A stretch of 64,000 bases of DNA from an uncultured Verrucomicrobiae bacterium (GCA_963764175.1 CAVXRE010000014.1:56833-120832), one strand, 5' to 3'. Numbered from the stretch's first letter, positions 30,931-64,000 are shown. Notes: generated from the letters alone by a model not told the origin. Made by a program: numbers and translations.

Positions 30931-30936
30931 AAATCT

Positions 30937-32759: not shown

Positions 32760-32791
32760 ATTAAGTTGGTGGTTGATAGTTCGGATTTAAA

Positions 32792-34889: not shown

Positions 34890-35543
34890 TCAGTTGGTGC
34901 GTCCGCTGTTCCGTGTCTTGAACAGACCCGCTTCATCCACAAGGCGCGTCAGTTCCGCCACTGATTGCACCTGCAATTTTCTCGTGATGTTTGTCCGGTG
35001 CAACTTCACGGTGCGTTCATTGATATCCAGTTCGGAGGCAATTTGCTTGTTCATCCGGCCCCGCACCACGTGCTCCAACACCTCCAGTTCGCGCTCGCTA
35101 AGCTCATTAAAACGACGGCGCAAATCCCGCAATTGTTCACGCTGACGCCGTTCCTGTGCGTCCCGTTCCATCGCCCGCTCAACCGCCGCCAGCAACTCCT
35201 CCTTCCGGGCACGCTTCGTCAAAAAATCCTCCGCTCCGCCCCGCATCGCGCTCACCGTTGTCGGAATGTCACCCTGGCCGGTCAAAAAAACTATGGGCAA
35301 TGGATTTGCAGAACACCTCAACGCCTCCTGCAATTCCAATCCGTCCATCCCAGGCATCTGCAGATCGGCCACGACGCAGCCGGGCATCTCCGGGGCCAGC
35401 CGGTCCAGAAATTCCTGCGCCGAGGCAAAAGCCTGCACGTGGTAACCGACCGCGCTCAGCAAACGGGACACCGACTTCAGGAAGGACGCGTCGTCATCCA
35501 CGATGAAAACGGTACCGGATCGGCGGTAAAGAGTGGCAGTCAT
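34890..35543 (-). CDS. response regulator, FixJ/NarL (LuxR-type HTH) family
   Basis: Receiver domain (VFIVDDD...) plus a C-terminal LuxR HTH (LSERELEVL...IASEL). Confidence 0.85.
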   Translation of the reverse strand: MTATLYRRSGTVFIVDDDASFLKSVSRLLSAVGYHVQAFASAQEFLDRLAPEMPGCVVADLQMPGMDGLELQEALRCSANPLPIVFLTGQGDIPTTVSAMRGGAEDFLTKRARKEELLAAVERAMERDAQERRQREQLRDLRRRFNELSERELEVLEHVVRGRMNKQIASELDINERTVKLHRTNITRKLQVQSVAELTRLVDEAGLFKTRNSGRTN

Positions 35544-49060: not shown

Positions 49061-49114
49061 GAAATTTGTTGTTCTTTTAATCTGTGTTTATCTGTGTACA
49101 TCTGTGGCTAAAAA

Positions 49115-50164
49115 ATGGCTGCTGAACGCCCCATAATCATCGCCACGCGCGGCAGCGCGCTGGCGCTCGCGCAGGCCAACCTGATTGCCGCGCAATGCCG
49201 GGAAACATTTCCGCGGCTGCGCTTCGAACTGAAAATCATCAAGACCACCGGTGACAAATTGCAGACCGCTTCGATGGCGAAAAAGGGCGAAAGCCTGCCG
49301 AAAGGTCTGTTCACCAAGGAACTTGAAGTCGCTCTCGTCAAAGGCCACGCCGATCTGGCTGTCCACAGCCTGAAAGATTTGCCAACGGATTTGCCCGCCG
49401 GACTGAAACTCGCCGCCACGCCCAAGCGCGCCGACGTGCGCGACGTTTTGATCTATCGCGATGCCGGATTTATCAGGGCCCGAGCCGCCGAATTTTCTTC
49501 TCAACCCTCAACCCTCAACCCTCAACCGGTTGATTGGGCGCCGGGACAGGACGCGTTGCGCGGTTTCCAGCCGCACCTGAAGCTGAAGGATTTTCCGAAG
49601 GCCGCAACCATCGCCACGAGCAGCACGCGACGCAAAGCGCAATTGCTCGCGGCTCGTCCGGATTTGAACGTCGTGGAAATTCGCGGCAACGTCACCACGC
49701 GGATGCAAAAGGTCGCCGAACGCGGCGAACTGGACGCGACCGTGCTCGCGCTCGCCGGATTGACGCGGCTCAATTTCCGCGTCACGCCCGAAGGCAAACT
49801 CGAAGGCGATGCGGTGCCGGATGGTCTCCTGGCGACGATTCTGGACGTGGACGTGATGCTGCCGTGCGTTGGCCAGGGCGCGATTGGCATTGAGATTCGG
49901 GCGGACGACGAACGCATCGCAAAAATTTGCGAGCGGCTGAATCATTTCAACACGTTTCAATGCGTAACCGCCGAGCGCGCGTTTCTGCGCGCGATGGGCG
50001 GCGGCTGCCAGAGTCCGGTGGCCGCCTATGCCGAAATCAACGGCAGCCGGGTGGAAATGCGCGCGGTGTCGTTTTGCGACAGACCGGCCAAACGCAGCGA
50101 AGGGAAACGTCCGGTGGCCGAGGCAGCGGTGCTGGGAGAACAACTTGCGGCGGAGTTGAAATAA
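49115..50164 (+). CDS. hemC: hydroxymethylbilane synthase (porphobilinogen deaminase)
   Basis: IATRGSALALAQA...KTTGDK canonical N-terminus. It carries an internal insertion that contains a heptanucleotide repeat. Confidence 0.9.
   Translation: MAAERPIIIATRGSALALAQANLIAAQCRETFPRLRFELKIIKTTGDKLQTASMAKKGESLPKGLFTKELEVALVKGHADLAVHSLKDLPTDLPAGLKLAATPKRADVRDVLIYRDAGFIRARAAEFSSQPSTLNPQPVDWAPGQDALRGFQPHLKLKDFPKAATIATSSTRRKAQLLAARPDLNVVEIRGNVTTRMQKVAERGELDATVLALAGLTRLNFRVTPEGKLEGDAVPDGLLATILDVDVMLPCVGQGAIGIEIRADDERIAKICERLNHFNTFQCVTAERAFLRAMGGGCQSPVAAYAEINGSRVEMRAVSFCDRPAKRSEGKRPVAEAAVLGEQLAAELK
49499..49526 (+). repeat. tandem heptanucleotide repeat (TCAACCC)x3.9 inside hemC
   Basis: Read directly: tcaaccctcaaccctcaaccctcaacc. 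It encodes SQPSTLNPQP. Confidence 0.85.
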
Positions 50165-50205
50165 AAACTTCTCAAACCTTTTGATCCTCCCTGTTCTTCA
50201 ACCGG

Positions 50206-50604
50206 CTATTTTTCCAGAGCGGCGAGGATGGAATCCAGTTGTTTGCGTTCGATGTCGGTGGCGGTTCCGGCGACGATGTGTCCGGCGATGCTGCGCAGGA
50301 TGTGGGCCTTGTCAGCGGGCAGATCCTTCAGCACATCGTTGAGCAGGGTTTTGACGATGGTGACGAAGGTGTTGCCGTTGTAATTGCAAAAGGGAGCCAG
50401 ACGGTGACATTGAAAGCCGATTTGTAAAACTTCCGCCAGCGACAATTTCCGGGCGCGACTCCGCTCCCACAATTCCTTTGCCGGAGCGTAACCGTCGGAC
50501 GCGGGCTTATGCAGGGCTTTCCGGGCTTCGCAAAGTGCGGCATTGATGGAAACGACCGTTTCCCAAGGAACTATTTGAAGCCAGTTTTTGACTGGTCCAA
50601 CCAT
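50206..50604 (-). CDS. hypothetical protein
   Basis: ORF only. It is adjacent to a 67-aa ORF (50610..50813) on the same strand but in another frame. Confidence 0.3.
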   Translation of the reverse strand: MVGPVKNWLQIVPWETVVSINAALCEARKALHKPASDGYAPAKELWERSRARKLSLAEVLQIGFQCHRLAPFCNYNGNTFVTIVKTLLNDVLKDLPADKAHILRSIAGHIVAGTATDIERKQLDSILAALEK

Positions 50605-50609
50605 CGCGG

Positions 50610-50813
50610 CTATGCGGACTTTGACTTTTTAAGGCTGGCTTTGATTCGCTGTAAAGTACCCACTCCCTCGCTTTTCAGATAGCCCTTGCCTGTTCGCGCC
50701 AAAACCGGTTCGGCGAGAAAACGATGCTGCATACGAAGCCCCTGCTTGATGGCTTCCTTCAGGAATTTGTTCTCTGCCACGGTCATATATGGAAGGTAAT
50801 CAATGAACCCCAC
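50610..50813 (-). CDS. hypothetical small protein (possibly N-terminal part of a disrupted gene with 50206..50604)
   Basis: ORF only. Confidence 0.2.
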   Translation of the reverse strand: MGFIDYLPYMTVAENKFLKEAIKQGLRMQHRFLAEPVLARTGKGYLKSEGVGTLQRIKASLKKSKSA

Positions 50814-50902
50814 AATCGCAAATCCATTCTGGTTGAAACAAAAACGGCGCGAACTTTCGTCCGCGCCGTTCCCCAGTTCCTCCCGGCTGGTCGTCCCAAA
50901 AA

Positions 50903-51943
50903 TTACTTTTTGGAAGTTTTCTTGATCGGCACTGTCGCAATTGTCTGGAGGATGCGACCGGCGATCTTGTAGGGATCGCCCTGTGAGTTCGGACGGCGAT
51001 CTTCCAGATAGCCGCGGTAGCCGTCGGGGATGAAGCTCTGCGGCAGGCGGACGGAAGCGCCGCGGTTACCAACCCCGTAATTGAATTTGTCAATGGACTG
51101 CGTCTCGTGGAGGCCGGTCAGGCGCAGATGATTGTCAGGGCCGTAGACGGCGATGTGCTCGTTCTTGTATTTGTCGAACGCGGCCATGAGGGCCTCGAAG
51201 TATTCCTTGCCGCCTACTTCGCGCATGTGCGTCGTCGAGAAGTTGGTGTGCATGCCGGAGCCGTTCCAGTCCACGTCCTTGCCGAGGGGTTTGCAATGCC
51301 AGTTCACATCCACGCCGTATTTTTCACAGAGGCGCATGAGCAGATAGCGCGCGACCCACATCTGGTCGGCGGCATTCCTGGAGCCTTTGCCGAAGATCTG
51401 GAATTCCCACTGGCCCTTGGCGACCTCGGAATTGATGCCTTCATGGTTGATGCCGGCGTCGAGGCAGAGCTGGAGATGCGTGTCCACAATTTCGCGGGCG
51501 ATGCAGCCGACGTTCTTGTAGCCGACGGCGGTGTAGTATTCGCCCTGCGGCGGGGGAAAGCCGCCACCGGGCGGGAAGCCGAGCGGCGCGCCGTCCTTGT
51601 AGAGAAAATATTCCTGCTCGAAACCGAACCATGCGCCCGGATCATCAGGAATCGTGGCGCGGGCATTGGTCGGGTGAGGGGTCTTCTTGTCGGGCATGTA
51701 AACTTCGGACATGACGATGACGCCGTTCTGCTTGGTGGTGTCGGGATAGACGGCCACGGGTTTGAGCATGCAATCCGAGGTGCGGCCCTCGGCCTGGCGG
51801 GTCGAGCTGCCGTCGAAGTTCCACCAGGGAAGTTCTTCGAGTTTTGGAAACTTCGCAAATTCCTTGATGGTGGTTTTGCCGCGGAGGTTTGCGACGGGTT
51901 CATAACCGTCGAGCCAGAGGTATTCCAATTTATATTTTGCCAT
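50903..51943 (-). CDS. glnII: glutamine synthetase type II
   Basis: Size ~346 aa with an N-terminus YLWLDGYEP...[11 protein letters not shown] typical of eukaryote-like GSII. Confidence 0.85.
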
Positions 51944-52333
51944 GGAGTTGAATGCAGGATGTTGTTGGTTTTAGTGTGTCAAGTTACTTGTTACTGACGT
52001 CAAACAGTTTCACAGGCATCAGCAGGTAGAATACCATCCCGGAACAATCTGTCCGGCCGGCGGCGAAAAAAACTTGGAATCGCCAGTGCCAGCGCGATTT
52101 TTTCAGTGCCAGATTTTTTTTGACCGGGAAATCAACCTGCGCGCAGGCTGTATTTTTTTGCCCACGCTGCGCTGATTTATCCGTTTGAAACGCGGTACTG
52201 TAAAGTAACTTTCCAAGCAGGATAAAGTACGCGATATTTGAAATCAAACGAAAATGACAGCGGTCTTTGGGCGGTCGTAATGGCGTTTGGATGAATTTCC
52301 GCCGGCTCCGGCAGCGACAATGGCATCGGATAT

Positions 52334-52717
52334 ATGTTGCAGGTGAAGGACACTCTCAGGGCGACCGTGAACATCGGCTTTGATGGCCGGGTGTTCAAGG
52401 CTTACCACGGCCCGGACGCGCCCGCGCGGTTTGCCAAGGAGGTGCGAATCCTGCGTCTGCTGGAGGCCCGGAAATGCGGGTTCGTTCCCCGGTTGCTTGA
52501 AGCCGATTCCAAACGACTCCGCATCATCACCACAAATTGTGGAAACCGGGTGGAACATCTGGATGCAGAGCGCGCGCGGGAGTTGTTTGCCGAACTGGAA
52601 ACCTACGGCGTGCGCCACGACGATCCCGACGTGCGCAACGTCACTTACCGCCAGTCCGACGGGCGTTTTTGCGTGGTTGATTTTGAATTTGCCACCATTC
52701 TACCGGGCTTTGAATGA
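52334..52717 (+). CDS. small protein-kinase-like fold protein (truncated/minimal kinase)
   Basis: A kinase catalytic-loop-like HDDPDVRNV motif is followed by CVVDFEFA (DFG-like). It is only 127 aa. Its stop overlaps the PP2C start. Confidence 0.35.
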   Translation: MLQVKDTLRATVNIGFDGRVFKAYHGPDAPARFAKEVRILRLLEARKCGFVPRLLEADSKRLRIITTNCGNRVEHLDAERARELFAELETYGVRHDDPDVRNVTYRQSDGRFCVVDFEFATILPGFE

Positions 52718-53571
52718 TGTCCACTCCAAAAAATAATCCGCGCTTGGCGTCCACCGCCAAACGCCTGCAATGGTCCGGAAGAACGGACCGCGGCAAGGTC
52801 CGTCCCAACAATGAGGACGCCTTCCTCGGCATCCGCTTTGATTCCCGGGAAATCCATCGCCTGGGAAAATTCGGCGAGGCCTCAACAGGGCACATGGACT
52901 TTGCCTTCGCCGTAAGCGACGGGATGGGCGGCGAATTGGCCGGGGAATACGCCAGCCAGATCGCGGTGGAAAAAATCACGGCGCTTCTCCCGCGCTCGTT
53001 CCAACAATCCGCCGTGGGATTGGAGGCCGGATTCGGGGATGTGCTGACGGAGCTGTTCGATCAAATCCACCGGGCGCTACAATACCTCGGCGGGAATTGC
53101 GAGGAATGCGCGGGCATGGAGACAACCTTGAGCCTGTGCTGGTTCACCCCGGGCTGGATGTATTTTGGCCACATCGGCGACAGCCGGATTTATTACCTGC
53201 CGGCGCGTGAAGGCGGGATCAGACAGTTGAGCCAGGACGACACATACGTCGGCTGGTTGTTCCGGAACGGCAAAATCAGCGAGCGCGAAGCCCGCATCCA
53301 TCCCCGGCGAAATCTGCTGCAAAAGGCCCTGGGTGGCGGCAACCAGTTTGTTGACCCGCAGGTGGGCGCGGTGGCTTATGAGGCTGGCGACATCTTTCTG
53401 CTGTGCACAGACGGTTTGGTGGAGGGGCTTTACGACCATCATCTGGTCGAGCTGTTGCGCCCGCCCGGATCTGCCGGGATCGGCACAAATCCGGCCCACC
53501 GACTGGTGGAAGCGGCGTTGGAAAAGGACGGTGGCGACAACACAACGGCGCTGGTGATTCAGGTAATTTGA
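52714..53571 (+). CDS. PP2C-family Ser/Thr protein phosphatase
   Basis: RTDRGKVRPNNEDAF, AVSDGMGG and LCTDGL motifs. Confidence 0.8.
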   Translation: MMSTPKNNPRLASTAKRLQWSGRTDRGKVRPNNEDAFLGIRFDSREIHRLGKFGEASTGHMDFAFAVSDGMGGELAGEYASQIAVEKITALLPRSFQQSAVGLEAGFGDVLTELFDQIHRALQYLGGNCEECAGMETTLSLCWFTPGWMYFGHIGDSRIYYLPAREGGIRQLSQDDTYVGWLFRNGKISEREARIHPRRNLLQKALGGGNQFVDPQVGAVAYEAGDIFLLCTDGLVEGLYDHHLVELLRPPGSAGIGTNPAHRLVEAALEKDGGDNTTALVIQVI

Positions 53572-53629
53572 GCGGGTGATGTTCACCGCCGCATATTTGA
53601 AGCCGAAAAATCACTCCGCCAAATGGAGA

Positions 53630-53674
53630 TAAAAAAACTGCGCCGGTTTTGGTATTAGCCAACAACCGGCGCAG
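53630..53674 (-). terminator. rho-independent terminator downstream of amt (minus strand)
   Basis: An 11-bp GC-rich stem (CTGCGCCGGTT/AACCGGCGCAG) is followed by a U7 tract on the minus strand. Confidence 0.7.
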
Positions 53675-53692
53675 CGTCGAACTTTCCCTCTT

Positions 53693-55321
53693 TTAGTCGT
53701 GGTAGCCCTCTTCGCCGTGTTCAGCAAAGTCGAGACCAGCGATTTCCACCTCCTCGGTCGGACGCAAGCCCACCAGCGCCTTCGTGATGTAGGCAATTAC
53801 AATCGTGCCCACGATGAACAGCGCCAGGGATACTGCGACCGTCTTCAGCTGCTCAATCAATTGCGGCTGAAAGATTTTGTCGGTGACAAATTTGCTCAAG
53901 TTGGTTGCCAGGTTTGGATTGGCGGCCTGACGGGCGAACATGCCGGTCATGATCGCGCCGCACATTCCACCGATGCCGTGAACGCTCCACGCATCCAGCG
54001 CGTCGTCCATGCCGAGCCAGGCTTTGACTTTGTAGCAGAAGAACCACGGAATGGTTCCGGCTGCGATGCCGATCCAAATCGAGCCTGACGGAAGAACATA
54101 ACCGCAAGCCGGAGTGATGAGCACCAGACCCGCCACAGCGCCTGAGCAGAAGCCCAGCACCGTGGGTTTGCCTTTGACAATCCAATCCCACATCGGCCAC
54201 ACAAATGAGCCGACCGCCGTGGCAATCGTCGTGGTGGTGAAGGCGTTGGCCGCAATCACGTCAGCCGCGACCGCGCTGCCCGAGTTGAAGCCATACCAGC
54301 CTACCCAGAGCATCGAAGCGCCGATGTAAGTCAGCACGATGCTGTGCGGCGTGAAGTTGGCCTTGGGAAAGCCCAGGCGTTTGCCGAGTATGATGCACAA
54401 CACCAAGCCCGACCAACCGGAAGACATATGCACAACCGTACCGCCGGCAAAGTCAAGGCCGTGAATCTTTGCGTCGGCATTCCAGCAGCCGTTCATGATT
54501 CCGTTGACACCCCAGACCATGTGGCCTTGCGTGAAATACACAATCAACATCCACAAGGTCATGAATACGAGAATGGCCTTGAACTTCATGCGCTCGGCAA
54601 TCGAACCCACGATGAGCGCCGGGGTGATGATGGCGAACATCATCTGGAACATGGCGTAAACGTTTTCCGAAACCCAATAAGAGTAACCCGGATTGGGCGC
54701 CGAAGTGACGTTTGACATCATCCAACATATCTTTGGATCTCCGACGACACCGTATATCCAGTCCAATTTCATGGCCGCAGCGCCGCCCGCGCCGCCGAAG
54801 ATCATGCCGTAGCCGCAGATGACGTAGAGAATCGTGACGAGGCCTGTGATCAGGAAGCATTGCGCGAGCACGGAGAGCACGTTCTTTTTGCGGACGAGAC
54901 CGCCGTAGAACAGCGCCAGACCGGGCAGCGTCATGAACAACACCAGCGCCGTGCTGGTCAGCAACCACGCATTATGGCCGGCACCCGGGAATGATACATA
55001 TGCCCCAAGGCTGTTGTTAAGGTTGGTGTTGATAATGTTTCCGGCCAGCCCAAAATTCACCGTCCAGTTGCCATTGGTGTCCTTGTAGGTAGCCGTCGGA
55101 TCCCCGTTTTGGAAATACGCTTCAACTGATTCCATGCGTTGTTCCATTGTCGGCGCGTTGGTGGTCCAGGCGGCCACGGGCGCATTGGTGGCTGCAGCAG
55201 CAGCCGGCGCGTTGGTGGATGCCGGGGCCGCGGCGCCAGCGTTCGTATCATCCGCACGCGACGTGTATGCGCCAAATGCAGTGACTGCAATCAAAGCGAT
55301 AGTTAAAAGATATCGTTTCAT
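53693..55321 (-). CDS. amtB: ammonium transporter with signal peptide and Ala/Thr-rich N-terminal extension
   Basis: Canonical Amt TM core. Start taken at MKRYLL (55321). Alternative upstream start at 55363. Confidence 0.9.
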   Translation of the reverse strand: MKRYLLTIALIAVTAFGAYTSRADDTNAGAAAPASTNAPAAAAATNAPVAAWTTNAPTMEQRMESVEAYFQNGDPTATYKDTNGNWTVNFGLAGNIINTNLNNSLGAYVSFPGAGHNAWLLTSTALVLFMTLPGLALFYGGLVRKKNVLSVLAQCFLITGLVTILYVICGYGMIFGGAGGAAAMKLDWIYGVVGDPKICWMMSNVTSAPNPGYSYWVSENVYAMFQMMFAIITPALIVGSIAERMKFKAILVFMTLWMLIVYFTQGHMVWGVNGIMNGCWNADAKIHGLDFAGGTVVHMSSGWSGLVLCIILGKRLGFPKANFTPHSIVLTYIGASMLWVGWYGFNSGSAVAADVIAANAFTTTTIATAVGSFVWPMWDWIVKGKPTVLGFCSGAVAGLVLITPACGYVLPSGSIWIGIAAGTIPWFFCYKVKAWLGMDDALDAWSVHGIGGMCGAIMTGMFARQAANPNLATNLSKFVTDKIFQPQLIEQLKTVAVSLALFIVGTIVIAYITKALVGLRPTEEVEIAGLDFAEHGEEGYHD

Positions 55322-55359
55322 GGTTTTATATTTAAAAAGGGTTTCAAGTGGTTGGGCGA

Positions 55360-55836
<477 letters not shown>

Positions 55837-55972
55837 TTAAATTCCCCCAAAATGCCGCCGTAAAAAAACATGTTGCGATTTGCGCAGTGAAGAAAATATT
55901 CGCCAGTGTTCGGGTGAAGAAAAAATGGGGGCAATCTGTGAATAAATCCGAGAAACGAGTTGCGAAAATAAA

Positions 55973-56062
55973 TGGTCGGAGCGACAGGATTTGAACCTGC
56001 CCCCTGCCATAGATTCACAAGCACTTACAAAGGCAGACGCACAAAGAGACTCACAAACTCCG
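55973..56062 (-). ncRNA. tRNA-like 3-prime element: acceptor stem, T-arm (TTCAAAT loop) and encoded CCA present, but no canonical D or anticodon arms
   Basis: Hand fold: 5-prime CGGAGTT pairs with 3-prime CGCTCCG. The T-stem is GCAGG/CCTGT, followed by ACCA. The internal 55 nt lack a GG D-loop or any anticodon hairpin. Confidence 0.4.
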
Positions 56063-56365
56063 GTCGCCTCATTGCACGGTCTGTCCCAAGTAGTCACCGC
56101 TTGGGCAAAACTTTCCGAACCGCTCAAGGCGGCAATCCTCGCCATTGTCAAATCAGCGGCGTGATTTTAGGAATGAACCGCATGAGCTTTAACCTGACAT
56201 GGCACATGAGCGCGTCACAATCGAATTTAACGCGCTTGCAGGCCGGGGATTTGGACGGGCGGCACTGGAAGATCACCGCTTTGGAAAAACGTGCTGGCGA
56301 GGCTGGTAATCGGCACGGCGGCGATTTGGGCGTGAGACTGACGAACTGAAAACGGAGGACGAACC

Positions 56366-56653
56366 ATGAACTTGAATCCCGCTGAATTGCTGAATCCCAT
56401 CTTCAACGCTCTGGACAGCTTGATTGAAAACTACGGCGTTTATCTCTACCTGGTGTTTGTCTGGCTGGCACTGCTGGCTATCGGTTGGATTTTAAGCGGC
56501 GGCTTGCGGAAACGGCTGAAAGGAAATTCAACCACGGTCATTCCCGGCATCATTTTCACGATGCACCCGCCGACGCAATCCCCGCCGCCAATCATCGGCA
56601 TCGAGGTCGAGCAGACATGGAAAGATGACAACGAAATGATGGACGAACCATGA
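56366..56653 (+). CDS. hypothetical small membrane protein
   Basis: A GGAGG sits 8 nt upstream of the ATG. There is one strong TM helix (LYLVFVWLALLAIGWIL). Confidence 0.35.
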   Translation: MNLNPAELLNPIFNALDSLIENYGVYLYLVFVWLALLAIGWILSGGLRKRLKGNSTTVIPGIIFTMHPPTQSPPPIIGIEVEQTWKDDNEMMDEP

Positions 56654-56945
56654 CAACTTTTCACTCACGACGATCAGACTGTGGCCGACGTGTTCAGAAA
56701 ATGGCAAACGCCGCCACGTTCAATTTCACACCACGGATTACACCACCGAATTTGCACGGTCATGTTCACGAAGCGCGAAAAATCCGGTGCAACAATGCTC
56801 CAAGCACGGTGCAAGCGCATATCACGAAATTGTCATTTTATACATCGCAAGCCTTACCCCTTGTCAAAACAAGGTTTTTACGGCTCGCCAATAGCTCGCC
56901 GAAAACTGCGCGGAGTCCCGCGAGACGGTCACGCGATGGGCGCGC

Positions 56946-56995
56946 AACATCCGGCAAGACATCCGGCGAAATATCCGCGCAACGTCCCGGCAATG
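56946..56995. repeat. degenerate 12-bp-periodic tandem repeat (ACATCCGGCRAR-like units x4)
   Basis: Read directly: acatccggcaag acatccggcgaa atatccgcgcaa cgtcccggcaat. Confidence 0.6.
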
Positions 56996-57144
56996 GCCGG
57001 ACAGTGGCAACGGCAATGCCGCCGAGCGTCCGTAAAGACGACTCGCAAGACAACTTGCCTTGCTCCCGACTTGGACGCGCCATGTCCGCGCCGGAAACTT
57101 GCGAGACGACTCGCCTCAAATCTCAACCATGACATCTAAAAATT

Positions 57145-57657
57145 ATGAATACACCAATCACACCACCATCAACGCCCGATCTCGAATCGCTGCACAAGGC
57201 GGTTCAGGAGTTCCGGCCTGTTCCGCATCGTGTCCCGTTCAACGGTTTGAAACCCGTCCATGATTCCATCGTGGAACTGCGTAAGCAAACTGTGTCTTAC
57301 GCCGCCATTGCCGATTTGCTGCAACAGCATGGGGTAAAAACCAGTCGGGCGCGTGTGGCCGAATACGGCCGCATCGTCCTGGAAGGCGGTAAAAAGCGCA
57401 AACGGCGGAAACGGACGAAAACCACGCCAGCCGCAAATATCCCGGCCACGTCTCAAAGTGCGTCAGCCGTGGCCGCACAACCCGCGCCGGCCACGCCGCC
57501 GGCAATGGCGATCACAAGCGAAGTTCCGCCGCCACCGAAAGAAAATTCTGCATACACATCGCGCGGACCGCGCATCGCCAACGTCCCGCAAATGAGTCCA
57601 GAAGAAGCCGCAGAATTCGACGCTTTCCTGAAATCAGAAAACGCCCCAAAGCCGTGA
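57145..57657 (+). CDS. hypothetical protein: N-terminal HTH-like domain, K/R-rich patch, Ala/Pro-rich low-complexity tail
   Basis: VSYAAIADLLQQHGVKTSRARVAEYGR is HTH-like. This is followed by KKRKRRKRTK and a PA-rich tail. Confidence 0.35.
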   Translation: MNTPITPPSTPDLESLHKAVQEFRPVPHRVPFNGLKPVHDSIVELRKQTVSYAAIADLLQQHGVKTSRARVAEYGRIVLEGGKKRKRRKRTKTTPAANIPATSQSASAVAAQPAPATPPAMAITSEVPPPPKENSAYTSRGPRIANVPQMSPEEAAEFDAFLKSENAPKP

Positions 57658-57839
57658 CCGGCATAACCGTGATTGTCTGGGGGTCGTAACGAGGGGCAGA
57701 CAATCACGATGCGCCGCGCGGCGCAAGAGCGCAGAGGCAAACAAACTTGGCCAGCGACGTTCGCCAGCCACACGCAGCCGCAAAGGTTCAGACGCCGCCC
57801 CGACAGGCCAATAACACCACGCTAGAAGCAAGTCTTTTC

Positions 57840-58100
57840 GGTTGGCAGCACGGTTAGCACCGGGTTAGCAACAGGGCGGTAATCATACGAGGCAGCATCC
57901 GAAGCAACATGGTTGTCACCATGCGAGGCAACGGCGAAGCAACACGGTTGGCAACAGAGTTGGCATTTCACGAAGCACGCTGGTTGGCATCGAGCGAAGC
58001 AGCCAACGCAACATGAAACGCAATGCTTGGCGCAACAGGCGAGGCAACATTTCACGCAGCACCAAGCGAAGCATTTCGCGCAACATTGGCGAAGCACAGA
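57840..58100. repeat. ~260 bp array of degenerate 12-bp-periodic repeats (GCAACAnnnnnG-like, ~20 units); frames give CCxx or LREMLP peptide repeats
   Basis: Units aligned by eye (gcaacggcgaa / gcaacacggttg / gcaacagagttg / gcatttcacgaa ...). The repetitive translations in all frames reflect the 12-nt period. Confidence 0.6.
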
Positions 58101-58480
58101 AACCTTGCCCCTTTAAGGGGTAGCGCGTGCCTTGACTAATTTCTACTTTTCGCCGCTTCCTTGCGATTGTCCTGGGTGTGACTTGGCCGGATGATTTCAG
58201 CGGCATGAACGGCTGACATTGAACCATGTTGAATGGCGTTTAGTTGCGTGAACCTTTCGCGCGATTTTTGCGCTAATTTTGCGCAACATTTGCGGCAGCG
58301 GTCGTGGCCTCAAGCTGTGCTAAGGGAAGATGTCTGACGGATTTTGAGCCGGTTCCTTCCGGCGCAACTGCTGTGTGCATCGCAGTCACCAGCTTGGCCG
58401 CTCCGCTGTTACGCCAACCGCGTTGCATGACAAGGAGAATAGCGTCCCGTCTAAAATCACCAAGTCACCGGAGCCAGGAT

Positions 58481-58548
58481 GTTGAAAAGCGTTGAATCAT
58501 CCTGTTGAATTTCGTTGAACGGCGTTGAAACCATCAACGCATTTCAAC
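58481..58548. repeat. array of five GTTGAA direct repeats at 10-13 bp spacing plus inverted TTCAAC copies
   Basis: GTTGAA occurs at 58481, 58491, 58504, 58514 and 58524. ATCAAC/TTCAAC occur at 58533 and 58543. Another GTTGAA lies at 58228. Confidence 0.6.
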
Positions 58549-58700
58549 ACAATTTTCCGTGCCATGCGGCGCATAGCTGAGAAACTACAATTTTCCGTAG
58601 GGGTGGGGCGTCCCGCTTTCGAGCATCCAATTAGGATGCCAACGGAATGATTTCAAATGGGGCTATTGGCTTAAAATCCGAATGTGGCAAATGGATTTAG

Positions 58701-58784
58701 AAGCGGCAAAAGGCGACAAAAGGCGGCAAGTTAAAGCGACAAATTGCGGCAAATTCGTTGCCGCCTTTTGTCGCTTTTTGCCGC
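58701..58784. repeat. 28-bp-arm inverted repeat (1 mismatch) with 28-nt spacer, built from six GCGRCAAA units
   Basis: The left arm AGCGGCAAAAGGCGACAAAAGGCGGCAA matches the reverse complement of the right arm TTGCCGCCTTTTGTCGCTTTTTGCCGCT. The spacer carries further GCGACAAA/GCGGCAAA units. Confidence 0.7.
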
Positions 58785-58978
58785 TCGGTTTCGAGCCGCG
58801 TTCTTTCCGAACGATTTCGTTGGGAGATGGTGTCTGTGTGCAAATGAAGTTTCCATCGGCCTCACTCCGATGCCATTTTCTGGCTGCGATGAATGTATGG
58901 CAACTGCCGTCGTGGGATTGGTGCGGTCGTAGCCTGTCCGTGACCGTGGACGGTTCTTGGCTTGTTCCGGGTAAAATT

Positions 58979-59503
58979 TCACTCAATGGGATTCTCACTC
59001 ATCTTTTTACCGATATAAATCTGCAATGGGAACGTGACGGCATCAACAACGAATGTAAATGGAAGCAATCCAACAGCCTTGCTAACAACCTTGATGTTCA
59101 CGGTTGTTCTTCGGTTCACGTCCACGCCTCCCTGACTTTGAACGCTGGCGATTTTTTTGTAATTCGAGTTTAGCTCCTTCCGTAAATATATTTTTTGCCG
59201 CACCTGCGGCGGCAAAGAGCTAATGTCCTTGAACGTGACATCGCCCTTCGTTTGAAGATGCGCCGCAACCAAAATATCCTGCGGAACAATCAAGTAAGCA
59301 GAAACACCATTTTGTTCTCCTGTTTTCGTCAGCGTGCCTTCGACCGCCAAACTGCCGTCGGACTTCGATTTGTAAATGGCCGTTGGCGAAAAATAATCTG
59401 ACTTACTGCCGACTGCATCATGCCACATGATACCAGTGACGCATCCCGACAGCAGTGGAAGCATAATTGCCACCACGAGAACTTGAAACGCTTTGCTTGG
59501 CAT
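58979..59503 (-). CDS. hypothetical lipoprotein (last gene of AT-richer operon)
   Basis: Signal peptide with lipobox (LLSGC). No known domain. Confidence 0.45.
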   Translation of the reverse strand: MPSKAFQVLVVAIMLPLLSGCVTGIMWHDAVGSKSDYFSPTAIYKSKSDGSLAVEGTLTKTGEQNGVSAYLIVPQDILVAAHLQTKGDVTFKDISSLPPQVRQKIYLRKELNSNYKKIASVQSQGGVDVNRRTTVNIKVVSKAVGLLPFTFVVDAVTFPLQIYIGKKMSENPIE

Positions 59504-59519
59504 CGGCAAGCACAATGTT

Positions 59520-59894
59520 TCAAGGCGTGTTCACGCCCTGAAAGGATTCCAACCCACCCAGTAAATTCTGCTTGGGGTCAAACTCCACGTTCCCGTCGTT
59601 TGGCGTCGGGTTCAGGTAAAAGCTAAACTCCATGAAGTCACCGTAAACTTTTCCGTAGAGCGCGCTTTTCACATTGCCGTTTGCGTTCAGCACTGCCCGC
59701 ACACGAAAGAAGTAATTCCGGTTTTCATCATAATCAGATATTCCCGGCTGCCCAGAATGGTGAGCATTTTCCCTGATCAACTGGGATTGATAACCGTTTG
59801 CCGGTGCTTCATGGGGTGAACGCAGACCCCTCCCTTTCTCCGCATCCGGCACGAGAAATTCATGACCAGAAACCCAGGTGTAGTGTGCGTTCAT
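59520..59894 (-). CDS. hypothetical protein consisting of an unrecognised ~110 aa domain shared with the C-terminus of the 60982..61971 product
   Basis: The stretch FFRVRAVLNANGNVKSALYGKVYG...YLNPTPNDGNVEFDPKQN aligns by eye with FFRVRTVLDSNGNVKSALYGKIQG...YLNPVPNSRNVEFDLKQN in the other protein. Confidence 0.5.
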   Translation of the reverse strand: MNAHYTWVSGHEFLVPDAEKGRGLRSPHEAPANGYQSQLIRENAHHSGQPGISDYDENRNYFFRVRAVLNANGNVKSALYGKVYGDFMEFSFYLNPTPNDGNVEFDPKQNLLGGLESFQGVNTP

Positions 59895-60970
59895 TTTACT
59901 TCACCATTCATTTTCTTGCGCAGTTCGTCCGTTGTCGGGGGAACTCCGGGCTGTTTCATCAAATACTTGTCAGATGATTTTCCGTTGTCGGCAAGGCGCA
60001 AGGCGTTTGAGGCGGAAATCCACTCAACACCTATTTCTTGAAGTTTGTTGTTATCAACATCGAAAAAGTCTATAGTCGCCCGATTAGTATCTACTGTCCG
60101 CCACGGAACCGGCCCCCCCACAAACATGGCCAACCCAATAAAAGCCATGCCGTCATTATTCAAAATTAGACTGAATGATTCTTCATTCGTCCAAACGCCA
60201 ACGAAAGGTGAATTCTTTGGCGTAACGTATTGCTCAATTAACGAACGATAGATGCCTTTTTTATCGAGTTGTCGAAGCAGAACTATGTCACGTCTTTCAG
60301 CCAGAATATCCACGGCGGACTTTTTACTGGCATTTTGAAGATAGGGATCAGCTCCGGCTTTTACCAACAGCGGCAACAAGCCCAAATCTTGATATTTCGG
60401 CGGTTGTCGCAAGACAGCATCAAGCAAAGATCGGCCTGTCTTTATCTCTTGAACACGCGCACCGTGTTCAAGAAGCCATTTAAGAGTATTTTCTCTTTCC
60501 TTCCCACACACTACAGCCATTTCCAAGGCCGTCATTTTCTCCCCAGTAGAAATCTGATTGATATCGGCCCCTTCCATGATAAGCTGTTTTATGAATTCCA
60601 AATTCCCTCGGATTACAGCCGCTTGAAGTGGTGTTTTATCACTCTCAAAGTTAGTGGGACACTCGTATCCGACATCTGCTCCCTGCTTGTGCAAGTATTC
60701 GAGCGCGTAAAATTGAGGACTGCGATAAGATAATCGGTCTGCGAGAAGATCGAACAACAGCCGAGAAGAAGTTGCTTTTCGGTCGGAGACACCGCGCGAG
60801 AAAATTTCAAACAAGTTTGTAAAAGTATTATAGCTGGCCGCGTTGCAAGCAGCCGCAAGCACATCACCTTCGGTTGGACTAGAAACATCTTTGCCAGCGG
60901 TTTGGCCAAACGAGTTGAAACAGCAACAAAGAAAAGGCACCGCAACTAGAGCTTTTAAGAATGCCTTCAT
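59891..60970 (-). CDS. periplasmic/secreted ankyrin-repeat protein
   Basis: Signal peptide. There are multiple ANK-like repeats (LLEHGARV, LVKAGADPYLQNASKKSAVDIL, etc.). GC is low. Confidence 0.75.
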   Translation of the reverse strand: MKAFLKALVAVPFLCCCFNSFGQTAGKDVSSPTEGDVLAAACNAASYNTFTNLFEIFSRGVSDRKATSSRLLFDLLADRLSYRSPQFYALEYLHKQGADVGYECPTNFESDKTPLQAAVIRGNLEFIKQLIMEGADINQISTGEKMTALEMAVVCGKERENTLKWLLEHGARVQEIKTGRSLLDAVLRQPPKYQDLGLLPLLVKAGADPYLQNASKKSAVDILAERRDIVLLRQLDKKGIYRSLIEQYVTPKNSPFVGVWTNEESFSLILNNDGMAFIGLAMFVGGPVPWRTVDTNRATIDFFDVDNNKLQEIGVEWISASNALRLADNGKSSDKYLMKQPGVPPTTDELRKKMNGEVK

Positions 60971-60981
60971 ATAATTTAACT

Positions 60982-61971
60982 TTATGGGGCTTTGACCTGC
61001 TCGGTAAATGGCAGTCCTTGAAATATATTTTGCTTCAGATCAAATTCCACGTTCCGCGAGTTTGGCACTGGGTTGAGATAGTAATCGAAAGCTATTCCAG
61101 AACGCGGTGCTTCACTGCCGACATAAAATCTCACCTCGCCCTGTATCTTGCCATAGAGCGCGCTTTTCACGTTGCCGTTTGAGTCCAATACTGTGCGCAC
61201 ACGGAAAAAATATCCAGAAGCCGGTTCTGAAGTTTCAGTAAAGTTATGATAGCTCCATGCCAGTGCTGGCTGATAACCTTCTTCCGCAGCGGAATGCGGC
61301 ATCACCAGTGGACTGAGGCCGGTATCGGCGGGAGAGGGCGGCACAACGACAACGCCGTCACCCGCATTGGGGAACGTCAGTTTCAAGTTCGCATCAAATT
61401 CCTGCGGGCTGGTGATTTTACGATGAACGGTGAAAAGCATGTCGGCGGTCTTGCCAGCACCATACGGTGCAACCCAGTCCCCAACTGTCAAATCGAAGCC
61501 CACTGGTTCATTCTCCTTGGGCATTTTTATTTCCTCCTTTTTCGCATACATCGCAATCGGTTTGCCGATTTTTTTGAGCACCAATGTAAAGGTTGGATTC
61601 CGGCTCGCGGCCACAGTCTTGTCGTCAAACTGTCCCGGCTGATAAAGTTCATGGCCAATGTGAGTAGTGTAATAGCCGGCCTTTCCAACGTTGACTCCAA
61701 ATGTCCATGAACTGTCCGTGTGGGATGCGCTAAACATCCCGTTGTCGTCGGTGAGACCTTTGATTTCCCCATACGCTTGCTGGTCTGGTGCCGACGGCGG
61801 CAGAATGGTGTATTGAACGGACACGTCCGCCCCTGGCACTGGATTGCCGTCCTCACCGACGACTTTGATGGTCGCAGTCCACGGATACTTTGTCAGTTGT
61901 CCGAAGGCACAACCGTTGGTGAACATGATGAGCGTTAGACAGAGAAAGGTGAGCGTGTTTTTCATAATCAT
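60982..61971 (-). CDS. secreted protein with carboxypeptidase-regulatory-like/Ig-like N-domain and C-terminal copy of the shared ~110 aa domain
   Basis: Signal peptide. ATIKVVGEDGNPVPGADVSV is a CarbD-reg-like strand. The C-terminus is paralogous to the 59520..59894 product. Its ATG overlaps the upstream stop (ATGA). Confidence 0.55.
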   Translation of the reverse strand: MIMKNTLTFLCLTLIMFTNGCAFGQLTKYPWTATIKVVGEDGNPVPGADVSVQYTILPPSAPDQQAYGEIKGLTDDNGMFSASHTDSSWTFGVNVGKAGYYTTHIGHELYQPGQFDDKTVAASRNPTFTLVLKKIGKPIAMYAKKEEIKMPKENEPVGFDLTVGDWVAPYGAGKTADMLFTVHRKITSPQEFDANLKLTFPNAGDGVVVVPPSPADTGLSPLVMPHSAAEEGYQPALAWSYHNFTETSEPASGYFFRVRTVLDSNGNVKSALYGKIQGEVRFYVGSEAPRSGIAFDYYLNPVPNSRNVEFDLKQNIFQGLPFTEQVKAP

Positions 61972-64000
61972 TTGAGATTTCCCGTAGTTACCATTTGTTT
62001 GAACAACTGATAGGTGAAGGTGTAAGCAACGATGCGAGCGTCCGAGTGATGCCATTCACCGAACGCGGTAGTGCCTATTGGCCATTGCGGCGCACCGCGA
62101 CCAGTCGGCCAACCATTTTCATACGAAGACTGCATATCAAAATTTCTCGTGCCGCCAAATCTGATGTCAAGATTCGTGTCCGCATTCGCTCCGAGAGGCA
62201 ACGTCAGTGCCGGAATCGCGTCCGACAAGATGCGGTTGCGGTTGGTCTGCACATAGGCGCTGCCGCTCGAACTGGCGGTGAACATCGCCGTGTCAACGCT
62301 CATGTCGAAAAAGGCGTTGGTCTGCAACACCGAGTTGGTAATCACCGCCGGCGGGATGTTCGTCCGCAACCCGTTCACGAAAAACACGTAGCCGGAATTA
62401 AGATTTTCATTGAGTCCCCAGCCGCCGTGGTCGCTGCTCAAAATCGTGTTGCCCAACATCTGGCCTTTATCTTTTTCCTGCCACGCCCAAACGTATGTTC
62501 CCGATTGCCCCTCTATCCATTGCACTAGCTGGGCACCAAAAAGTAAAATAAGGTTCGAGGGTGGCGCGCCGCTGTAGGTTCGCAGCACTTCCTCACCGCT
62601 GGAATAAAAGTTATAGACTGCGGTGCTGCCAAAATTACCAAACCGATTGTTCCACGTCAAAGTGCTGCGGGCGTCGTTGGTCGGCCATACATTGAACCAT
62701 TCGCTCGCCCAAAGCGCAGTGGCGTAATTCAGCCAAGGAGCGGACGATGTGGAATAAACCATGTTGGTGTTTATCGGCGTGCTGCCGTCAATCGCCTCCA
62801 TCGGCACGGCGGCGTCCACCATGAAGTATTGGCTGATGGGTGCATTCCAATCGCTCATGGCGCTCAACGCCACCATGTTGCCCAAACTATGTGCCATTAC
62901 CGTTGTCGGCCCGTTGGTCAGCGTGGCAATGAAGTTTGCCAGCAACGGTGCAGTCTGAAAAGCGTGAACCACGTTCGTCTGATAGTTGGCCGTCACGCCC
63001 GAAATCCAATTCCCCTGCGAGTCATTGCCATACCAGTTCACGCCGTAAAACCTGGCGTGCGAGCCAGACCAGTAAAGCCGCTTGTAGATGTCGGCAAACC
63101 AGCCGCGTGCCTGATACGGACTGACATTATAGCCATGCACGAACACGACATTTTTATCAATCGTGTCCGGCTCATTGGGCACGCTGGCATCCGTCAGTCG
63201 GTCGGGCAATAAATTTGCTTGATTGGTTGCCGCTCCAATCAGCAGGTTTTTGTAACGGAACATCTGTTCTACACCGCTGATGCTCAAATAAAGTGAAGTC
63301 TGCGCAATCTGGTTCGTGCCGTGGTAAATCGTCAGCACCAATGGCTGCGTTGTGGATGCTGCTGCTTCCACCAGAATGATGCCCTGATTGTTTGTGGCAA
63401 TGCCACCAACAAACGACTGCAACAGCGTCACGCCGCCATTAGCTGCATTGGTGATGGTGGTCAGCGACGCATTGGCCAAATTGCCCGACTCATTCGTGTC
63501 GTGCAAAAAATTCATGTAATTGGTTGGCGTCAAGTCCGTGTAGGCGAACCGCAACACGCCGTCGGCTTGGCTCAAAACAAATGACCAGTTGGTATCCGTG
63601 AAGCTGATTCCGGCACTTAAAGCATTGCTCTGGAACAAACTGCTGATGTTGATATACAGAGGGAAGTAGTTCACGAGGTCTCGCCGTCCGTGGATTTTCC
63701 ACTGGCGCTGAATTTGCAACACGCCATTGCCTTGTGCCCCCTGTCCCGGAATGCCTGTGCCGCCGAAATCGCCAGCGTCGGAAGTATCGTCAACCCAAAA
63801 ACGAAACGGTTTGCTTGCCGATACGAAATCCGGGCCTTGGTAAGTGAAATCCATCGTGCCATCATGATTGGCGTCCGCCGAGAGTGCAACCACACGAACC
63901 ACGCCCGTGCCTTGCTGCCCGGTGTTAATGTCAGGCATTGTCACCAGTGCAACCATGCCCGGCTGCGTCGGGAAGAAGTCGCCATACGGCGAAACCACGC
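61968..64000 (-). CDS. large secreted alpha/beta-hydrolase (lipase/esterase-like, GxSxG = AHSLG) domain protein, 5-prime partial (continues beyond window end)
   Basis: FVHGYN...MAHSLGNMVA is a serine-hydrolase nucleophile elbow. The ORF has no start before the window end. N/T/S-rich beta regions flank the domain. Confidence 0.6.
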   Translation of the reverse strand, partial: VVSPYGDFFPTQPGMVALVTMPDINTGQQGTGVVRVVALSADANHDGTMDFTYQGPDFVSASKPFRFWVDDTSDAGDFGGTGIPGQGAQGNGVLQIQRQWKIHGRRDLVNYFPLYINISSLFQSNALSAGISFTDTNWSFVLSQADGVLRFAYTDLTPTNYMNFLHDTNESGNLANASLTTITNAANGGVTLLQSFVGGIATNNQGIILVEAAASTTQPLVLTIYHGTNQIAQTSLYLSISGVEQMFRYKNLLIGAATNQANLLPDRLTDASVPNEPDTIDKNVVFVHGYNVSPYQARGWFADIYKRLYWSGSHARFYGVNWYGNDSQGNWISGVTANYQTNVVHAFQTAPLLANFIATLTNGPTTVMAHSLGNMVALSAMSDWNAPISQYFMVDAAVPMEAIDGSTPINTNMVYSTSSAPWLNYATALWASEWFNVWPTNDARSTLTWNNRFGNFGSTAVYNFYSSGEEVLRTYSGAPPSNLILLFGAQLVQWIEGQSGTYVWAWQEKDKGQMLGNTILSSDHGGWGLNENLNSGYVFFVNGLRTNIPPAVITNSVLQTNAFFDMSVDTAMFTASSSGSAYVQTNRNRILSDAIPALTLPLGANADTNLDIRFGGTRNFDMQSSYENGWPTGRGAPQWPIGTTAFGEWHHSDARIVAYTFTYQLFKQMVTTGNLK

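Follow-up and report, generated by a model that had tools for sequence, protein, structure and literature searches.

A recently mobile tRNA-Pro(UGG) island beside glnK in an uncultured Verrucomicrobiae bacterium, with an integrase reading frame predicted to span its attachment site

The DNA that separates glnK from an AT-rich operon in a 64,000-nucleotide stretch from an uncultured Verrucomicrobiae bacterium (GCA_963764175.1 CAVXRE010000014.1:56833-120832, hereafter the window) is, judging from its sequence, almost certainly the backbone on the attR side (one of the two attachment, or att, sites) of a genomic island inserted at the T-arm of tRNA-Pro(UGG). Taken together with its relatives, it is probably the attR-proximal backbone of an intact, recently mobile island of ~16-17 kb, whose integrase would exchange its C-terminus on excision and whose repeat arrays would be bound by a protein of the backbone. 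The locus defines a widespread island family that moves variable cargo (surface proteins, kinases and toxin-antitoxin-like genes) into tRNA genes; no paper on this family turned up in literature searches, and it is apparently undescribed. To our knowledge, there are almost no characterized mobile elements in peat and soil Verrucomicrobiota. The defined ends of the family (the tRNA T-arm core and GATGGTGTCT) and its marker protein p170 allow automatic annotation of such islands in metagenome-assembled genomes (MAGs).

A displaced tRNA fragment and empty sites define the island

The segment begins with the following feature:

55973-56000, minus strand: attR core, the displaced 3' 28 nt of tRNA-Pro(UGG) (T-arm, 3' strand of the acceptor and CCA), assigned by identity to a full tRNA-Pro(tgg)

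A first-pass annotation made from the sequence alone had noticed a tRNA-like 3' fragment here, and it is indeed the displaced 3' terminus of tRNA-Pro(tgg): read on the minus strand, 55973-56000 is GCAGGTTCAAATCCTGTCGCTCCGACCA, which matches without a mismatch the final 28 nt of the gene in two syntenic relatives (L052 and L042). A 25-mer of the fragment occurs once in the window, with 0 chance occurrences expected, and ARAGORN called no complete tRNA at 55973-56000. A match to tRNA-Pro(ggg) at 29034-29111 was rejected, as the acceptor stem differs. In both relatives, the gene order is hemA-hemC-glnA-amtB-glnK, fragment, island, integrase, tRNA-Pro and ispH, with the intact tRNA and the displaced fragment both present, and cores of 16-33 nt occur at both ends of 11 further islands. 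The intact tRNA copy belonging to the window's own island lies outside the window.

The first-pass annotation suggested asking whether the segment is an indel relative to close relatives, and it is. Three short peat-metagenome contigs retrieved by exact GlnK protein (L081, L083 and L085) are 98.8-99.1% identical to the window in alignments that end exactly at position 56000, where they continue with an intact tRNA-Pro(tgg) and then ispH, without an island. Peat metagenomes containing these strains include ERZ25039479, ERZ25039540 and JGI 3300018034/3300018046. The left junction is therefore 56000|56001, and the presence of empty sites in strains 99% identical in the flank argues that mobility is recent. 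The locus and its relatives together show a tRNA 3' direct repeat, a tyrosine integrase beside att (read in relatives) and presence/absence polymorphism with an intact attB, as is usual for tRNA islands. The window belongs to a Limisphaerales-type MAG, and the segment is 100% identical in an NCBI MAG contig (GCA_049279155.1, JBAPNP010000125.1) and 98-99% identical in two independent ENA assemblies; since three independent assemblies carry the same sequence, the assembly artefact that the first-pass annotation had allowed for does not explain the repeats.

The full extent of the island was read from L074, a 193-kb contig from a sister strain that is 98-99% identical to the window across the module. 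Its order is p95, p160, p170, a group II intron, a lipoprotein gene, an IS21 element, genes for proteins of 124 aa, an ankyrin protein, 329 aa, a LamG/hydrolase protein of 2057 aa and 209 aa, a p243 homologue and a PF00589 integrase. On this order, the window island would measure ~16-17 kb, with the AT-rich operon as its cargo and the segment studied here as its attR-side backbone.

The module is shared by a widespread island family

Module limits were set by blastn of 55700-59200 against 62 genome loci, which came from a scan of species-representative genomes for p170 homologues. The conserved module occupies 56001-58835, with blastn homology switching on at ~56036 and off at ~58835 between unrelated flanks. 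Nearly all 62 loci are labelled Verrucomicrobiota or Limisphaerales, and several per genome or contig are common. The left junction was readable in 40 loci, to which the tRNA and left-end counts refer, and a tRNA T-arm lies within 60 nt of the left end in all 40. Two arrangements occur: the module adjoins either a complete sense tRNA-Ser or, as in the window, an antisense 3' fragment, with the full tRNA (Ser, Asp, Pro or Leu) 7-10 kb rightward. Islands are stacked in tandem in L028, L061, L046, L038, L060, L021 and L049 and stand head-to-head in L024 and L053. Integration relative to the tRNA has the opposite orientation in L012, L017, L019, L023, L024, L034, L045, L051, L053 and L064 compared with the window and ~30 other loci, and the island integrase reads the T-arm in sense (GFESPSLRH) or antisense, matching subfamily orientation. 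The T-arm is near-palindromic (GGGGGTTCGAATCCCCC), which may allow both orientations.

Homologues of p170 form 944 clusters at 90% identity, the best 120 of which are 73-99% identical. The module, with p170 and an array lying between two inverted copies termed IR-L and IR-R, has one orientation in 62/62 loci, and inversion of this segment between IR-L and IR-R was rejected on that ground. Transposon-like terminal inverted repeats were also rejected: the likeness between the left arm-type repeats and the right end is limited to the 6-nt AGACAC. No match to p170 was found by tblastn in PLSDB plasmids or INPHARED phages, and one IMG/VR contig only carries the module. A search of viral contigs with the array DNA motif returned that contig and one chance match; the latter, to GCGACAAATTGCGRCAAAT in L076, was rejected as a two-unit hit in an unrelated AT-rich phage.

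The integrase reading frame probably crosses the attachment site

Reconstruction from sequence makes it quite likely that attP lies inside the integrase ORF (open reading frame) and that excision swaps the C-terminus of the integrase (Int) for a conserved tail. Two features of the left end are involved:

55991-56164, plus strand: integrase 'tail' exon, which extends the C-terminus of Int (..WSERQDLNL) across the att core and ends ..LSQVVTAWAKLSEPLKAAILAIVKSAA at a stop codon; supported by open frame, in-silico excision and the ratio of non-synonymous to synonymous polymorphism (pN/pS)
56036-56057, plus strand: two tandem 11-bp direct repeats, GACGCACAAAG AGACTCACAAA (= GACNCACAAAG AGACNCACAAA), candidate arm-type sites for Int, found at every left end

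In 40/40 loci, the tail frame has no stop upstream across the tRNA sequence, and it is the same frame in which int reads the core. Across 38 aligned module copies, the set used for all codon-position and pN/pS analyses, the tail (56036-56164) has a pN/pS of 0.45, and its most variable position is the third codon position. In five att classes, the two sides of the core are read in one frame, giving the following peptides through the core:

Pro: WSERQDLNL
Ser, antisense: WRREGDSNP or GGERGIRTP
Ser, sense: GFESPSLRH
Asp: GGSGGART

In-silico excision lengthened the Int ORF by 45-54 aa in 12/12 islands from five att classes, and in all 12 reconstructed islands the extension ends ..LSQVVTAWxKLPxPLKAAILAI(V/I)K... 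The 11-bp repeats have a counterpart across the core in the int 3' region (encoding DSRIDSR, DSQIDSQ, DTQLDTQ or ASQGASQ), and the two repeat sets co-vary by subtype, as expected for arm-type sites.

At the far end of the island, on the strand of p170, p243 (243 aa) is followed by the PF00589 tyrosine integrase; each was found in 22 loci, and PF00589 also in L052. The integrase faces outward, reading into the tRNA. By inspection, p243 has an excisionase (Xis)-like helix-turn-helix (HTH), without a family match, and the p243-int operon has a canonical TTGACA-N17 promoter. A gene for an XRE/HTH_31-type, repressor-like protein lies just upstream of an inverted copy of block X (a hairpin region described below) and the p243-int operon in L017 (18085-18345), L069 (8857-9117) and three other loci. 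In L073, int is immediately preceded by a separate excisionase-like gene of the HTH_17 type (66 aa).

In the integrated state, Int would terminate in a short stretch encoded by the tRNA. In the excised circle, the junction would join int to the tail exon at 56001-56164 and add ~50 residues ending LSQVVTAWxKLPxPLKAAILAIVKSAE. The predicted attP junction consists of the int 3' end, TGGTCGGAGCGACAGGATTTGAACCTGC and CCCCTGCCATAGATTCACAAGC, and for the window island, a p243 homologue preceded by an inverted block X is predicted ~8-9 kb past the end of the window, before a ~445-aa integrase ending ..WSERQDLNLRQPAPKAGALPS, a minus-strand tRNA-Pro(tgg) and ispH. The same junction would put p95-p160-p170 directly downstream of the p243-int operon, making excision a covalent switch of both integrase form and backbone expression. 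An integrase ORF that crosses attP in every subtype would be a natural on/off switch.

The left 1.7 kb is a coding backbone

The first-pass annotation described the segment as gene-poor, with weak ORFs only. This is accurate for 57658-58835, which is non-coding, but not for 55991-57657, which is filled by four conserved ORFs (the tail, p95, p160 and p170). The features downstream of the tail are:

56165-56365, no strand assigned: optional spacer, including a called 58-aa ORF (56173-56349), probably non-coding; missing in ~40% of copies
56366-56653, plus strand: p95, a small protein with one hydrophobic (transmembrane-like) segment; pN/pS 0.44, present in nearly all copies
56650-57132, plus strand: p160, a basic, low-complexity ORF of 160 codons whose ATG overlaps the p95 stop (ATGA); open frame
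56859-56879, plus strand: hairpin and T-run (terminator- or attenuator-like) within p160, at the outer end of IR-L (56827-56972); supported by covariation and a terminator scan
56890-57025, plus strand: nucleotide-constrained segment upstream of p170, with 12-bp array 1 (GCGCAACATCC GGCAAGACATCC ...); pN similar to pS
57145-57657, plus strand: p170 (170 aa), with a tri-helical homeodomain- or resolvase-like HTH (approximately residues 13-79), followed by the stretch KKRKRRKR, a P/A-rich disordered linker, the conserved motif SRGPRIA and a helix at the C-terminus

Codon-position variability is flat across the spacer (0.139/0.118/0.124). No Pfam, PHROG or NCBIfam match was found for p95. The motif GGACGAACCATGA precedes both p95 and p160, and the p160 frame is open in 35-36 of the 38 copies, with 2-8 stops in the other frames; gene callers predicted p160 in L069-L071, L074 and L080. 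Its sequence makes p160 a probable gene overlapping cis elements. One of these, the stem at 56859-56879, takes the compensatory forms CCTTGTC/GACAAGG, CCTTAGCC/GGCTAAGG, CCTTCG/CGAAGG and CCTTGC/GCAAGG, has an RNA fold z of -3.0 and was flagged by the terminator scan. Around array 1 (56946-56982, period 12 by TRF), pN and pS are each ~0.16 (56890-57010) and column conservation is 0.91-0.94 (56890-57025), which indicates nucleotide-level constraint not explained by coding.

The HTH domain of p170 (57145-57420) has a pN/pS of 0.32, and its recognition helix is invariant in all loci. An exhaustive profile search with p170 yielded only 249 clusters among 1.84 billion representatives. Distant homologues keep the HTH, the basic run, the P/A-rich linker and the 'RGPRIA' motif. 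Other relatives (P0179, P0189, P0225 and others) are proteins of 360-680 aa with 5-8 tandem copies of a ~57-aa unit of HTH plus basic linker (..EEIFNLREQGLSYKEIAEYFxxKGIKVSxxTISxRCKKIYxxKGKKEPKxKRK..), apparently from AT-rich organisms. The plasmid, phage and IMG/VR collections contained none of these multi-HTH proteins, and P0179 and P0189 were placed in no locus.

The right 1.2 kb holds repeat arrays and hairpins in a conserved order

The first-pass annotation listed two 12-bp arrays, a GTTGAA array and a GCGRCAAA inverted repeat, all of which are present and well above chance. It took them for several unrelated families. They are not chance peculiarities of this locus: all four repeat classes (12-bp GCAACA, 11-bp TTTTGCGCAAC, GTTGAA and 10-bp GCGRCAAA with its 28-nt inverted repeat) recur across the family at the same relative positions. 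The family-wide order is the p170 stop, block X, the 12-bp array, IR-R, optional mosaic blocks, the GCGRCAAA inverted repeat, a hairpin with T-run, a covarying stem and GATGGTGTCT. In the window, these are:

57668-57830, no strand assigned: block X, a 12-bp-stem hairpin (57668-57708) and a minus-strand terminator-like hairpin (57770 to 57748); from scans and folds
57839-58100, plus strand: 12-bp array 2, ~22 phased units of the form nG[C/G][G/T][A/T]R-GCAACA, of types CGARGCAACA and GTTnGCAACA; from periodicity and pooled consensus
58105-58139, no strand assigned: degenerate IR-R remnant (inverted copy of 56838-56862) with hairpin CCCCTTTAAGGGG (58108-58120)
58255-58294, plus strand: 11-bp array of TTTTGCGCAAC, 3-4 units; lag-11 autocorrelation 0.62; a mosaic block, found elsewhere in other islands
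58480-58549, plus strand: GTTGAA array, five direct repeats spaced 10-13 bp apart, then two inverted half-sites
58702-58785, no strand assigned: GCGRCAAA 10-bp array with 28-nt inverted repeat, where the non-coding right end is best conserved; aligned in 26 loci
58783-58835, plus strand: module right end, with hairpin and T-run (58783-58805), covarying stem (58806-58826) and invariant GATGGTGTCT (58826-58835)

Array 2 has an autocorrelation of 0.47 at lag 12 and 0.43 at lag 24, compared with ~0.30 in a coding control, and GCAAC occurs in it at 32.6 per kb, on one strand only, compared with 1.75 per kb in the window. In 388 units pooled from ~40 loci for the 12-bp consensus, spacing is 12 bp in 194 cases and 11 bp in 54. 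Copy number varies from 6 to 24 between loci, without a conserved reading frame in ~40 copies. The units differ outside the GCAAC core, which argues for selection on the core rather than recent slippage. Tetrapeptide-repeat coding by array 2 (in the window, a Cys-rich minus-strand ORF at 57822-58097 and an LREM-type ORF) was rejected because the frames are broken by stops or shifts in ~40 copies. L080 is 98.6% identical to window positions 48360-57909, diverges abruptly inside array 2 and carries other cargo thereafter; the end of near-identity at 57909, with different cargo beyond it, points to array 2 as a recombination breakpoint for cargo exchange.

An inverted copy of block X lies just upstream of p243 in L010, L017, L019, L023, L028, L069, L073 and L074. 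In many loci, IR-R is a full-length inverted copy of 56827-56972 with a covarying hairpin. A group II intron encoding a reverse transcriptase (RVT_N/RVT_1/GIIM) is inserted in L074 (16484/18722) exactly after the IR-R hairpin, equivalent to window position 58130, and an intron reverse transcriptase lies within the module copy of L037 (12219-13730); both introns fit homing to terminator-like stem-loops.

The GTTGAA array has five direct copies and one exact inverted copy in 58481-58548, a second inverted half-site TCAAC at 58534-58538 and an inverted repeat, I5 (58480-58495/58534-58549); arrays of this type also occur in L024, L026, L031, L035, L037 and L066. GCGRCAAA has six copies in 58703-58784, and its 28-nt inverted repeat is 96% complementary, with a folding energy of -69 kcal/mol and z = -7. 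For the right end, conservation was counted in the 26 aligned loci: GATGGTGTCT is invariant in 26/26, and three pairs of the covarying stem show double compensatory changes. The region from the sigma70-like motif at 58525-58553 to the terminal 28-bp hairpin and terminator (58525-58805) outlines a possible small RNA of ~250 nt. An Rfam scan of the segment gave only sub-threshold miRNA/CsrC noise, on the big hairpin. Beyond GATGGTGTCT and a variable 5-nt spacer, ~15 loci share two hairpins (TTGCC..GGCAA; GCGAGATATTCGC) in a block of ~60 nt that ends GAACGTrTGG; in the window, 58836-58900 holds another hairpin (58854-58872) but the same GAATGTATGG ending, and this block may be a cargo-junction site.

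An array-binding model and its alternatives

We modestly favour protein binding as the role of the arrays, on the strength of their sequence. p170 is a tentative candidate for the binder, suggested by its tandem-HTH relatives, whose architecture suits tandem DNA sites with one unit per HTH, by GCAAC units on either side of its gene (array 1 upstream, array 2 downstream) and by the 12-bp footprint. Footprints of 12 bp are typical of homeodomain and Hin-type domains composed of an HTH plus an arm. p170 would bind phased GCAAC(A) units as head-to-tail monomers, in array 1 upstream of its own gene and in array 2 downstream. The resulting nucleoprotein filament may autoregulate the backbone and mark or maintain the excised circle in a centromere- or iteron-like manner, with a partner recruited via RGPRIA. 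The GTTGAA, TTTTGCGCAAC and GCGRCAAA arrays may be further operator-like sites, and the hairpins may act as terminators insulating the backbone from convergently transcribed cargo.

Several observations weigh against this overall reading. Neither int nor p243 was found in the window or in a near-identical contig (L004), to ~67.6 kb; the integrase, Xis-like gene and regenerated tRNA were read from the sister strain and lie outside the window. A search of the protein collection with the tail peptide gave only 14 short ORFs and no Int-tail fusion, so we infer the circular form rather than observe it, and junctions between tandem islands are indistinguishable from attP. The link between p170 and the arrays is limited to proximity, fold and family architecture, with recognition helix and motif both invariant. 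Some islands are without arrays altogether, and the copy in L052 is cut short after p170. The window carries IR-R in degenerate form. The p160 coding signal is weak (pN/pS 0.73, compared with 0.88/0.96 out of frame), and a terminator-like hairpin lies inside the ORF. Finally, a weak sigma70-like motif (TTGAAA-17-CACAAT, 58525-58553) overlaps the GTTGAA array and faces the terminal hairpin, which leaves room for an RNA product.

A bolder extension of the model, which we consider unlikely, is a new self-maintenance device in which p170 would polymerize on GCAACA arrays and recruit a host replication or segregation machine via RGPRIA; the circle would thereby persist without a Rep, Par or transfer gene of its own, and recombination would take its direction from the swapped Int tail. 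Should the arrays and p170 form a maintenance or mobilization system, this would explain how minimal islands persist and spread.

Less probable still is a vegetative replication origin, in which the arrays would be iterons of the excised island and p170 (or p160/p243) a minimal initiator recruiting host replication proteins via RGPRIA. Phased direct repeats do lie beside, and partly upstream of, a DNA-binding protein gene, which is the classical layout of iteron plasmids and of P4 and phage-inducible chromosomal island (PICI) origins, and circularization would switch the backbone genes on. Tycheposon-type islands, moreover, carry a small replication module opposite the integrase (10.1101/2020.12.28.424599). 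However, no Rep, primase or helicase family was found in any backbone protein (Pfam, PHROG and NCBIfam), and 56001-58835 contains no DnaA box (TTWTNCACA). The module has no AT-rich unwinding element, no 60-nt window below 35% GC (the lowest value being 0.35) and nothing in its GC skew. The folded part of p170 is a single ~70-aa HTH, unlike known initiators, and the 12-bp unit is shorter than typical iterons of 17-22 bp. Nor were ParA, ParM or TubZ homologues found in the backbone of any island, or Pfam or NCBIfam matches to a type IV secretion system (T4SS) or relaxase in the backbone or sampled cargo; sequence alone does not reveal an oriT. The first-pass suggestion of a plasmid or integrative and conjugative element (ICE) origin or a partition region therefore finds no Rep, ParA/ParM/TubZ, relaxase, T4SS, DnaA box or unwinding element to stand on.

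Slightly further down the scale, we doubt that the repeats act chiefly as regulatory RNAs, namely a leftward repeat RNA running through the 12-bp array to the 57770-57748 terminator, the ~250-nt small RNA from 58525-58553, or both, with repeats as decoy or antisense. The array is flanked by oriented terminator-like hairpins and, in many islands, faced by an inverted copy of the p170-upstream region, the terminal hairpin with its T-run is strongly structured (z = -7) and some stems covary. Against this, Rfam gave no match beyond chance, the promoter-bearing part of IR-R is missing in the window although the array is at its longest there, what the units conserve is a 5-7 nt core and strict 12-nt phasing, not the potential to pair, and compensation in the GCGRCAAA arms is inconsistent between copies.

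Of the first-pass proposal of a scar left by an integrated replicon, integrated mobile DNA starting at a tRNA remnant stands and the scar does not. A dead remnant of old integration with neutral minisatellite expansions would account for the missing integrase in the window, the degenerate IR-R, the variable array copy number and the intron and insertion sequence (IS) in the sister strain. It is nevertheless very improbable: the backbone ORFs are intact, with purifying selection on the tail, p95 and p170; a strain 98-99% identical carries the integrase and Xis-like gene; empty sites in strains 99% identical in the flank indicate recent mobility; and repeat cores are kept across copies only 70-85% identical, in heterogeneous units, which is not what recent slippage leaves. 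Adjacency to glnK and TGGCA-type motifs in the array could suggest host control of the glnK-amtB nitrogen operon, by sigma-54 or enhancer sites for instance, but this is refuted by the empty site, as the whole segment is missing in near-identical strains; the same module also stands beside unrelated genes at Ser, Asp and Leu tRNAs, and the candidate sigma-54 promoters (TGGCA-N-TTGCA) were rejected on a GG-to-GC spacing of 12, not 11.

Comparison with known systems

As mobile, tRNA-integrated DNA with a probable Int tail swap, the island resembles several described systems. Islander-type tRNA islands have a displaced 3' tRNA fragment, a tyrosine integrase by the regenerated tRNA, crossover in the T-arm and frequent tandem accretion (PMC4383910), and the present islands share the displaced fragment, tyrosine integrase, T-arm crossover and tandem accretion. 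They differ in a backbone (p95, p160, p170 and p243) of no described family, in having subfamilies in either tRNA orientation and in being without phage, conjugation or replication genes. Tycheposons of Prochlorococcus are 8-17 kb islands at tRNAs with partial-tRNA flanks, tandem stacking and variable cargo between a terminal integrase and a small conserved module at the opposite end (10.1101/2020.12.28.424599). The present islands are likewise tRNA site-specific, with partial tRNAs, tandem stacking and a modular layout. However, the tycheposon integrase faces inward, whereas that of the present islands faces outward, and unlike tycheposons and PICI, these islands of Verrucomicrobiota lack primase, helicase, polymerase, terS and capsid genes; no PHROG match to PICI or phage-satellite genes was found in island proteins except for the integrase.

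For the reading frame across attP, there are two experimentally known precedents: IntP/IntX of phage Mx8, with attP within the int ORF and exchange of the C-terminus on integration (Tojo et al. 1996, cited in PMC4383910), and SSV-type archaeal integrases, with attP inside the int ORF (PMC7253208). As in Mx8, only the Int C-terminus would be exchanged here, with the catalytic domain intact in the sequence reconstruction; SSV integrases are split into two inactive halves, whereas the present island integrase is not. Unlike in either, the core is a tRNA T-arm, the ~50-aa tail lies far downstream of the catalytic Tyr and five att classes of a non-viral island are involved. Truncated Int would be impaired, as is reported for Mx8, and the tailed Int would favour integration or be the only active form.

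Circularization-dependent gene expression is known in integrative elements such as Tn916. As in Tn916, excision would join a promoter-proximal operon to genes of the other end, here p243-int across attP to the tail and p95-p160-p170, and in ~40% of copies p95 follows directly after the tail stop. This likeness is drawn from gene order only, and an internal promoter in the 56165-56365 spacer is possible. Small adaptors on centromere-like arrays include TubR on tubC (12-bp repeats), ParR on parC (11-bp), StbA on stbDR of R388 and omega on the heptads of pSM19035. Unlike these partition systems, the island backbone is without a cognate NTPase (ParA, ParM or TubZ), and p170, without detectable homology to their adaptors, is a candidate binder only. 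ToxIN-like RNA repeats (34-36 nt, upstream of an endoribonuclease toxin gene) were rejected because the units are 12 nt, no gene follows on either strand and there is no Rfam match; a CRISPR array, which would have repeats with unique spacers, was rejected because the 12-nt units are contiguous.

Cargo and neighbouring features

From 58979 to its end, the window is island cargo:

58979-64000, minus strand: cargo (the 'AT-rich operon') encoding a lipoprotein, a 124-aa protein, an ankyrin-repeat protein, a 329-aa protein and the C-terminal part of a LamG/alpha-beta-hydrolase protein of ~2050 aa

Cargo lies mostly on the strand opposite the backbone, and in other islands includes Ser/Thr kinases with TPR, Ig/NHL surface proteins, DUF6345, ATPase_2/DUF234 and MNT/HEPN. 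In L074, an IS21-type element (rve and IstB; 12574-15002) lies between the 124-aa and lipoprotein genes; the window lacks it. Following the cargo lipoprotein gene of the window, a hairpin (59194-59216, minus strand; TTTGCCGCCGCAGGTGCGGCAAA and a T-run) shares the word GCGGCAAA with the terminal array of the module. The 124-aa protein (59520-59894) and a 357-aa protein (the 329-aa protein as called; 60982-62055) share a C-terminal domain (..YFFRVR.VL..NGNVKSALYGK..) without a Pfam match.

Elsewhere in the window, tRNA-Pro(ggg) at 29034-29111 is followed at 29254-35000 by ORFs without family matches, with a GC content of 0.44 at 30-31 kb and 0.49 at 34-35 kb. A Phage_CP76 (CII-like regulator) match lies at 33558-34142, and this region may be a second mobile element.

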